Source: Escherichia coli (GTDB taxonomy: Bacteria; Pseudomonadota; Gammaproteobacteria; Enterobacterales; Enterobacteriaceae). From it: a DNA stretch of 1,249 nt. How positions within the stretch are numbered: position 1 is the first letter of the stretch; each line of letters starts with the position of its first letter. The stretch lies in the NCBI RefSeq assembly GCF_003334255.1, contig NZ_QOWU01000169.1, one strand, 5' to 3'. The position numbers and the translations under genes were made by a program. Under the pieces are notes generated by a model. The model saw only the letters and a program-made list of their open reading frames with translations. It searched no databases and was not told the origin of the DNA. Below are positions 1-1,249 of this stretch, one piece after another.

Positions 1-277
1 ATACATGATCAAATACTCCTTACATAAATAAGGTGAACAAATGGAACTTAAAAAATTGATGGAACATATTTCTATTACACCCGATTACAGACAAGCCTGG
101 AAAGTGGTGCATAAATTGTCAGATATTCTACTGTTGACTATTTGTGCCGTTATTTCTGGTGCAGAAGGTTGGGAAGATATAGAGGATTTCGGGGAAACAC
201 ATCTCGATTTTTTGAAGCAATATGGTGATTTTGAAAATGGTATTCCTGTTCACGATACCATTGCCAGAGTTGTATCC
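1..277 (+). repeat. Direct repeat copy A: 5' UTR plus first 79 codons of an ISAs1-family/H-rpt transposase gene; the repeat may extend upstream of the window
   Basis: Manual alignment of 1-277 against 381-657 (offset 380) gives 13 mismatches in 277 bp (~95% identity). Homology ends abruptly after position 277/657. The first 40 bp (1-40 vs 381-420) are identical. Confidence 0.9.
30..36 (+). promoter_or_regulatory. Shine-Dalgarno sequence (AAGGTGA) for the 41-295 ORF
   Basis: AGGTG core at 31-35, a 5-nt spacer, then ATG at 41. The identical motif sits before the copy B start. Confidence 0.6.
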
Positions 278-295
278 CAGGGAAAGATCACGTAA
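41..295 (+). CDS. Truncated ISAs1-family (H-repeat-associated) transposase N-terminal fragment, 84 aa; probably an inactive remnant
   Basis: ORF from the track ([84 protein letters not shown]). Residues 1-79 are collinear with the N-terminus of copy B. After codon 79 the sequence leaves the repeat and gives 5 unrelated residues (QGKIT) and TAA at 293-295. From memory the N-terminus resembles E. coli H-repeat-associated proteins (YhhI/YdcC/YbfL type); the 84-aa size is reminiscent of ybfQ, but this is unverified. Confidence 0.65.
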
Positions 296-380
296 CGCTA
301 CTTTTTTGTACTAAATAATTCGCATTTTATGTTTAAAAATTGAGATATTCCTTATTACCTAAAGCTGTTTTTCATAGCTT

Positions 381-657
381 ATACATGATCAAATACTCCT
401 TACATAAATAAGGTGAACAAATGGAACTTAAAAAATTGATGGAACATATTTCTATTATTCCCGATTACAGATAAGCCTGGAAAGTAGAGCATAAATTGTC
501 AGGCATCCTACTATTGACTATTTTTGCCGTTATTTCTGGTGCAGAAAGTTGGGAAGATATAGAGGATTTCGGGGAAACACATCTCGATTTCTTGAAGCAA
601 TATGGTGATTTTGAAAATGGTATTCCTGTTCACGATACTATTGCCAGAGTTGTATCC
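381..657 (+). repeat. Direct repeat copy B (partner of 1-277)
   Basis: Same alignment as copy A. Mismatches relative to copy A lie at copy-A positions 78, 79, 92, 106, 108, 123, 124, 127, 133, 144, 167, 211 and 259. Confidence 0.9.
410..416 (+). promoter_or_regulatory. Shine-Dalgarno sequence (AAGGTGA) for the copy B transposase start
   Basis: AGGTG at 411-415, a 5-nt spacer, then ATG at 421. Identical to the copy A site. Confidence 0.6.
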
Positions 658-1249
658 TGTATCAGTCCTGCAAAATTTCACGAGTGCTTTATTAACTGGA
701 TGCGTGATTGCCATTCATCAAATGATAAAGACGTCATTGCAATTGATGGAAAAACGCTCCGGCACTCTTATGACAAGAGTCGCCGCAGGGGAGCGATTCA
801 TGTCATTAGTGCGTTCTCAACAATGCACAGTCTGGTCATCGGGCAGATCAAGACGGATAAGAAATCCAATGAGATCACAGCTATCCCTGAACTTCTTAAC
901 ATGCTGGATATTAAAGGAAAAATCATCACAACTGATGCGATGGGTTGCCAGAAAGATATTGCAGAGAAGATACAAAAACAGGGAGGTGATTATTTATTCG
1001 CTGTAAAAGGAAACCAGGGGCGGCTTAATAAAGCCTTTGAGGAAAAATTTCCGCTGAAAGAATTAAATAATCCAGAGCATGACAGTTACGCAATGAGTGA
1101 AAAGAGTCACGGCAGAGAAGAAATCCGTCTTCATATTGTTTGCGATGTCCCTGATGAACTTATTGATTTCACGTTTGAATGGAAAGGGCTGAAGAAATTA
1201 TGCGTGGCAGTCTCCTTTCGGTCCATAATAGCAGAACAAAAGAAAGAGC
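421..1249 (+). pseudogene. ISAs1-family (H-repeat-associated) DDE transposase gene, interrupted by an in-frame TAA at codon 18 (472-474); 3' end lies beyond the window
   Basis: Frame-1 translation from ATG 421 reads [17 protein letters not shown] then stop (TAA at 472-474; copy A has CAA there). The same frame then stays open from 475 to the window end (about 258 codons): ...[258 protein letters not shown]. From memory this matches E. coli H-rpt ORF-H proteins (YhhI/YdcC/YbfL-like). Candidate DDE aspartates fall at 745-747 (VIAIDGK) and 934-936 (ITTDAMG); the catalytic Glu would lie beyond the window. The ORF track missed this frame because it has no stop inside the window. Confidence 0.8.

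Follow-up and report, generated by a model that had tools for sequence, protein, structure and literature searches.

What is the genomic setting of a short stretch of Escherichia coli DNA that carries H-rpt sequence, and does the biology of interest lie within it or beside it? The stretch that we analyzed (1,249 nucleotides, nt; hereafter, the window) had been assigned, as probable, to an Rhs locus in a preliminary description made from its letters alone. A megablast search of 5,426 complete E. coli genomes returned a 100% match in E. coli J53, a K-12 derivative, and MG1655 matched with 99.8% identity, at ybfQ–ybfL. In both genomes, the annotation at the matched site reads ISAs1 family transposase, partial pseudogene, for ybfQ, and ISAs1 pseudogene with an 'internal stop' for ybfL. 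The flanking context described below was inferred from these two annotated genomes containing the window sequence, and L001 denotes the coordinate system of the annotated J53 region around the window.

In the 31-kb annotated regions of J53 and MG1655, the gene order is kdpFABCDE, ybfA, rhsC, ybfB, ybfO, ybfC, ybfQ, ybfL, ybfD, ybgA, phrB, with ybfO being an RHS-core fragment that lacks the N-terminus. A synteny comparison with the K-12 RhsC region had been proposed beforehand; the gene content and the region were right, but the order given (ybfB-rhsC-ybfC-ybfO-ybfQ-ybfL-ybfD) has to be corrected to ybfA-rhsC-ybfB-ybfO-ybfC-ybfQ-ybfL-ybfD. The window is almost certainly the ybfQ–ybfL part of the K-12 RhsC element, i.e., the near part of a three-copy H-rpt array located between ybfA and ybgA. 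This array consists of H-rptC1, H-rptC2, and H-rptC3 (hereafter C1, C2, and C3; ybfQ, ybfL, and ybfD, respectively, or b4514, b0705, and b0706 of K-12) and closes the RhsC element distally in K-12-type E. coli. The three copies were reportedly described by C. W. Hill's laboratory; the locus is textbook material, and the window itself holds nothing new. In the E. coli W genome paper, the Rhs region b0699-b0706 is given as rhsC plus one C-terminal tip (PMC3032704).

The features of the window, numbered from its first nucleotide, are as follows:

Positions 1 to 277, plus strand: H-rptC1 remnant (5' stub), corresponding to element positions 105-381, from the 95% repeat of 381-657 and the three-copy alignment.
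Positions 41 to 295, plus strand: ybfQ ORF, 84 aa, an N-terminal ISAs1 transposase fragment, from the ORF list, NF033564 positions 1-51, and annotation.
Positions 278 to 295, plus strand: left end of H-rptC2 with its terminal inverted repeat, CAGGGAAAGATCACGTAA (18 nt; 89% complementarity with L001 16550-16567).
Positions 278 to 1249, plus strand: first 972 nt of H-rptC2, from inverted repeats at L001 15278 and 16568; the other 319 nt lie past the window end.
Positions 421 to 1249, plus strand: ybfL pseudogene, codons 1-276 of 378, from translation; the frame runs off the window end.
Positions 472 to 474, plus strand: in-frame TAA at codon 18 of ybfL, CAA in other copies, which inactivates ybfL.
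Positions 1188 to 1224, plus strand: G1188 and C1224, which differ from MG1655 ybfL and equal yhhI, from sequence comparison.

H-rpt is an ISEc1-like insertion sequence of the ISAs1 family, 1291 bp long, with 18-19-nt terminal inverted repeats and a single DDE-transposase ORF of 378 codons. Within the window, positions 1-277 recur at 381-657 as a direct repeat of 277 nt (95% identical, 13 mismatches). Because this identity over 277 nt is beyond chance and the ISAs1 model NF033564 matches both ORFs, the tandem of one partial and one full H-rpt copy is real, as the preliminary description had held when it read the window as partial and full copies in a row. The three copies were resolved by inverted repeats and alignment over L001 14700-17700. 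The left inverted repeat of C1 lies 104 nt upstream of the window, with the head (G)CAGGGAAAGATCACGTAA at L001 14897 and the 18-nt repeat sequence running from 14898; the copy is 381 nt long and ends abruptly at L001 15277, with the very next base opening the inverted repeat of C2. Bounded by 18-19-nt arms that are 89% complementary (far repeat, L001 16550-16568), C2 is a complete ISEc1-like (ISAs1-family) element of 1291 bp, and it shares 95-96% identity over 1291 nt with the intact K-12 copies ydcC and yhhI. C3 (ybfD) abuts C2, lacks the first 25 nt (i.e., starts at element position 26), carries an internal deletion of ~313 nt, and is defective.

No target-site duplication was found around C2, the flanks of which (GTTGTATCC on the left and TTTTTGTAC on the right) do not form direct repeats, or around the whole array; C2 is flanked by other H-rpt copies, and its original target has probably been rearranged. 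Insertion of C2 into one ancestral element was considered and rejected: C1 extends to element position 381 and C3 begins as early as position 26, and since these coordinates overlap, C1 and C3 are not halves of a single interrupted element. The C1/C2 junction may have arisen when one H-rpt copy inserted into or beside another.

Two further observations concern the H-rpt copies. First, a 16-nt stretch directly left of the C1 repeat (L001 14882-14897, TTTTGCGTTCCATTTG) is 88% complementary to the H-rpt ORF start (CAAATGGAACTTAAAA); this could be a leftover of an H-rpt copy in inverted orientation, or a coincidental match. Second, each H-rpt copy contains, within the sequence coding for the transposase N-terminus, a terminator-like hairpin with a T-run after it (TCGGGGAAACACATCTCGA TTTTTT; window positions 189-207 and 569-587 on the plus strand, and L001 16836-16854); this hairpin might attenuate transposase transcription, or be a coincidence. 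Terminator-like hairpins recur at the same two sites in each H-rpt copy. An Rfam scan of the window (E ≤ 1) returned no RNA family, and promoter-like sites were not in excess (9 found versus 9.3 expected).

We then consider the coding content. After repair of the codon-18 stop (TAA to CAA), YbfL matched the NCBIfam ISAs1 transposase model NF033564 over positions 1-314 of 314 (414.6 bits, E 2.5e-124; curated whole-protein cut-off, 70 bits), and Pfam placed PF13808 (DDE_Tnp_1_assoc) at residues 8-94 (E 9.9e-32) and PF01609 (DDE_Tnp_1) at residues 102-343 (E 7.1e-31). YbfQ matched the same NCBIfam model over positions 1-51 (E 5.7e-18, 65.1 bits), a score short of the 70-bit cut-off, as expected for a fragment; the C2 left inverted repeat supplies the final five codons of ybfQ and its stop. 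Assignment to the ISAs1 family is thus carried by a full-length, above-cut-off transposase, the PF13808-PF01609 order, and terminal repeats on a single-ORF element of ~1.2-1.3 kb; two other hallmarks of the family, a target-site duplication and an intact transposase ORF, were not seen in these copies (C1 is truncated after codon 79, and C2 carries TAA at codon 18). Relative to the paralogue consensus, YbfL shows three substitutions plus the stop. Of the six sampled loci with C2 or a C2 hybrid, five carry the codon-18 TAA, namely, the K-12 type (J53, MG1655) and four natural strains; CAA stands at this codon in strain Res13. Neither window copy can work, and the window is inert mobile-element debris. 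H-rpt elements are filed as IS elements in ISfinder, and their transposition has not been observed (PMC3032704).

A different reading of ybfQ is that it represents a retained and expressed DDE_Tnp_1_assoc fragment acting in trans, e.g., by inhibiting ISEc1 transposition or by serving as a domesticated DNA-binding factor. Truncated transposases inhibit transposition in other IS families (Tn5 Inh and IS1 InsA), which provides a precedent. Moreover, (i) 6/6 sampled C1-bearing loci (K-12 type in J53/MG1655 plus four natural strains) keep the 84-codon ORF undisrupted and ending at the same stop; (ii) AAGGTG is located 7 nt upstream of the ybfQ ATG; and (iii) only two residues of YbfQ deviate from the paralogue consensus, compared with the substitutions and stop of YbfL. 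In addition, a 2025 paper attributed radio-tolerance in Caenorhabditis elegans to a diet of the Keio ybfQ deletion strain (PMC12655312), and this host-level phenotype would fit a functional YbfQ. However, the sampled ybfQ copies are almost identical in DNA, so that ORF intactness is no evidence of selection; the promoter scan detected no promoter-like site upstream of ybfQ on the plus strand; C1 was lost through recombination in strain EH031, in which the context is otherwise intact; RefSeq lists ybfQ as a pseudogene; and the deletion phenotype could be polar or unrelated. We therefore regard a retained, trans-acting fragment as quite improbable, and the more specific proposal, that YbfQ is expressed and inhibits or regulates ISEc1/H-rpt transposition in trans, as slightly less probable again. 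If true, a trans-acting YbfQ would help to explain the lack of observed H-rpt movement. On the preferred reading, what is called the ybfQ 'gene' is a transposase stub formed where two IS copies meet, so that deletion phenotypes need caution, and polar or recombination effects on neighboring H-rpt or Rhs genes deserve checking.

We turn to the upstream flank; the preliminary description had expected the more interesting biology to lie next to the window. The rhsC stop codon lies 2.6 kb upstream of the window start. RhsC (1397 aa) matches the RHS core equivalog model NF041261 along its entire length (2676.3 bits; cut-off 2000), as well as TIGR01643 (YD repeat, E 1.5e-39), YD_repeat_2x, and Rhs_assc_core; residues 1238-1247 read PISNIDPLGL, after which comes a 150-aa tip. 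Downstream, the orphan fragment (ybfO) matches positions 908-1261 of the RHS-core profile, and its DNA is 97.2% identical to rhsC nt 2695-3738. It parts from RhsC exactly at the motif and continues into an unrelated 152-aa tip of its own. Each tip is followed by a small ORF, i.e., ybfB (108 aa) after the rhsC tip and ybfC (189 aa) after the orphan tip. The G+C content is 61.7% in the core, 36.8% in the rhsC tip plus ybfB, 39.6% in the orphan tip plus ybfC, and 40.1% in H-rptC2, compared with 56.3% in the neighboring kdp genes. The flank hence presents what is expected of an Rhs element: a core ORF with YD repeats, a demarcation motif, an orphan core fragment with another tip, small ORFs, and the corresponding G+C pattern.

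The orphan demarcation motif reads PVQYIDSMGL (L001 13790-13820, residues about 345-354), in which DP is changed to DS, making it an inexact version of PxxxxDPxGL. Rhs tips are known to be released by autoproteolysis, a step that this variant might affect. YbfB (L001 12372-12698) is almost wholly hydrophobic and looks like a membrane protein, and the N-terminus of YbfC (L001 14246-14815) resembles a signal peptide or lipoprotein (MKRVLFFLLMIFVSFGVIADC). Should YbfB and YbfC prove to be immunity proteins, the membrane may be the site of action of the RhsC tip, and the periplasm that of the orphan tip. No Pfam match was obtained for the RhsC tip or the orphan tip, and none from NCBIfam for either tip, ybfB, or ybfC, with only core models matching in RhsC and the orphan. 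A C-terminal displacement model has been put forward for Rhs (PMC2935791), and the PxxxxDPxGL motif and orphan modules have been described for Rhs/CDI loci (PMC3150448). From the architecture and the literature on other Rhs systems, we infer that the tips and their small ORFs form putative toxin/immunity pairs. The Rhs-locus context proposed in the preliminary description thus holds, with rhsC, ybfB, the RHS-core fragment, and ybfC immediately upstream in the genomes containing the window. Its suggested searches for an rhs core ORF and for small downstream ORFs with an orphan tip yielded YD repeats and PISNIDPLGL in RhsC, and ybfB, ybfC, and the orphan core-plus-tip fragment, respectively. Its expectation of toxin/immunity modules in the flanks was borne out by the putative pairs on the upstream side but not on the downstream side, which contains only the remainder of the H-rpt array (the rest of ybfL and the third, defective copy ybfD) followed by the housekeeping genes ybgA and phrB; the annotated matching genomes showed no toxin/immunity module there.

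How widespread is this arrangement? The ybfC-to-H-rpt junction was found in 2,729 of 5,426 complete genomes (about half), and a contiguous match across the C1/C2 junction was present in 27 of 60 evenly spaced rows (~45%). A larger figure, 4,961/5,426 genomes at ≥80% window coverage, was rejected as a measure of prevalence, as a single H-rpt matches both repeat copies of the query. With such an internally repeated query, two pieces become joined on one H-rpt (e.g., the 381-bp places at ydcC), which inflates coverage counts; for this reason, prevalence was taken from the ybfC junction and from the contiguous-junction sample. The other two full-length H-rpts of K-12 likewise mark the distal ends of Rhs elements (rhsE-ydcD-yncI-ydcC and rhsB-yhhH-yrhC-yhhI).

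Among the five natural strains that we examined, the rhsC...ybgA context was observed in 5/5 and the C1/C2 junction in 4/5, with array sizes from one to three copies. Res13-Lact-ER02-39 (L005 1-4380) has three copies; in its C2, codon 18 reads CAA and the transposase ORF is intact over all 378 codons. In this strain, ybfB and ybfO have been lost, and rhsC and ybfC cut short, through an IS5 insertion. Res13 C1 and C2 look homogenized to the consensus in their 5' parts. MS10495 (L007) and WCHEC115106 (L009) carry C1 and C2, HUSEC2011 (L006) carries C1 and a C2/C3 hybrid, and EH031 (L008) has a single hybrid copy and hence no C1/C2 junction. These variants, found within unchanged flanks in HUSEC2011, MS10495, EH031, and WCHEC115106, are what homologous recombination and gene conversion among tandem repeats would be expected to generate. 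The copy-number polymorphism of the H-rpt array is useful for annotation.

Might the window instead be an isolated ISAs1/ISEc1 element that lies in a plasmid, an O-antigen cluster, or another unrelated setting lacking an Rhs element close by? H-rpt/ISEc1 copies are indeed found singly at other sites (median of 5 places per genome, and 22-30 places on plasmids), and small true plasmids with one H-rpt copy exist. However, the window holds the C1/C2 junction, which is absent from a single element, and every inspected record with a contiguous junction match displays the rhsC...ybgA context, so that the unrelated setting against which the preliminary description had weighed its own reading was not encountered. 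In the plasmid collection, junction matches occurred only on records of 0.28-4.8 Mb, namely, CP061260.1 (L010), CP061270.1, CP099174.1, and NZ_OL790696.1. CP061260.1 (280 kb) has ybfA, ybgA, pxpB, and pxpA around the junction match, and because these are chromosomal genes, we consider it a mislabelled chromosome fragment; the other three records are probably mislabelled chromosome fragments as well. No true plasmid or O-antigen context for the C1/C2 junction was found in the plasmid collection or the inspected records. A plasmid context for this diagnostic junction was accordingly rejected; small true plasmids carry single H-rpt copies only. We view a stand-alone insertion as barely tenable.

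We also compared the window and its surroundings with MG1655 base by base. Only two bases of the window differ (1188 and 1224). They open a yhhI-like patch that starts at 1188, spans at least 136 nt, and continues past the window, with five more differences beyond it (L001 16296-16323); all seven differences between J53 and MG1655 ybfL (7/7) equal yhhI. Similarly, the 32 differences between J53 and MG1655 rhsC (L001 8739-11748) equal rhsB without exception (32/32). The two donors, yhhI and rhsB, both reside in the RhsB element. These J53 patches are either gene conversion from RhsB to RhsC or a short-read polishing error in a hybrid assembly. That the partial-plus-full tandem is itself an assembly artefact, i.e., a mis-joined repeat, is a negligible prospect: the sole 100% match is indeed a hybrid assembly (J53-p1-pV-hybrid-1) with paralogue-derived bases in its rhsC and ybfL, but MG1655 has the junction as well, as do roughly 45% of the complete genomes sampled, which come from many laboratories and platforms.

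On the reading that we favor, with the window as part of the RhsC element, recombination between tandem H-rpt copies would shift the array size between one and three among strains, and gene conversion would swap patches between H-rpt paralogues; the observable behavior of the window would then amount to supplying homologous repeats. The functional biology would be located upstream, where the 150-aa rhsC tip and ybfB are followed by a displaced orphan core with its 152-aa tip and ybfC, a layout that would correspond to the classical polymorphic toxin/immunity arrangement, with the pairs being putative. The biological weight of the window is small; its letters by themselves allowed an anonymous 1.2-kb stretch to be placed correctly in the RhsC element, and the stretch is now tied to named K-12 genes.

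Finally, the locus can be compared with three known systems. The upstream flank resembles the orphan tip/immunity arrays of Rhs/CDI loci in that a full rhs gene with a small ORF precedes a core fragment, which bears an unrelated tip and has a further small ORF behind it; unlike those arrays, it has one orphan only, its tips contain no recognized toxin domain, the orphan motif is off consensus, and the architecture lies outside the window. The H-rpt copies are like the ISEc1/ISAs1 elements ydcC and yhhI in size (1291 bp), terminal inverted repeat, 378-codon ORF, DNA identity (95-96%), and full-length NF033564 match; in contrast to intact copies, those of the window are defective, with a truncation at element position 381 in one, a nonsense codon at position 18 in the other, and no visible target-site duplication. 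With H-rptC1/C2/C3 of K-12, the window shares the locus itself, 99.8-100% nucleotide identity, the gene order, and the internal stop of ybfL.
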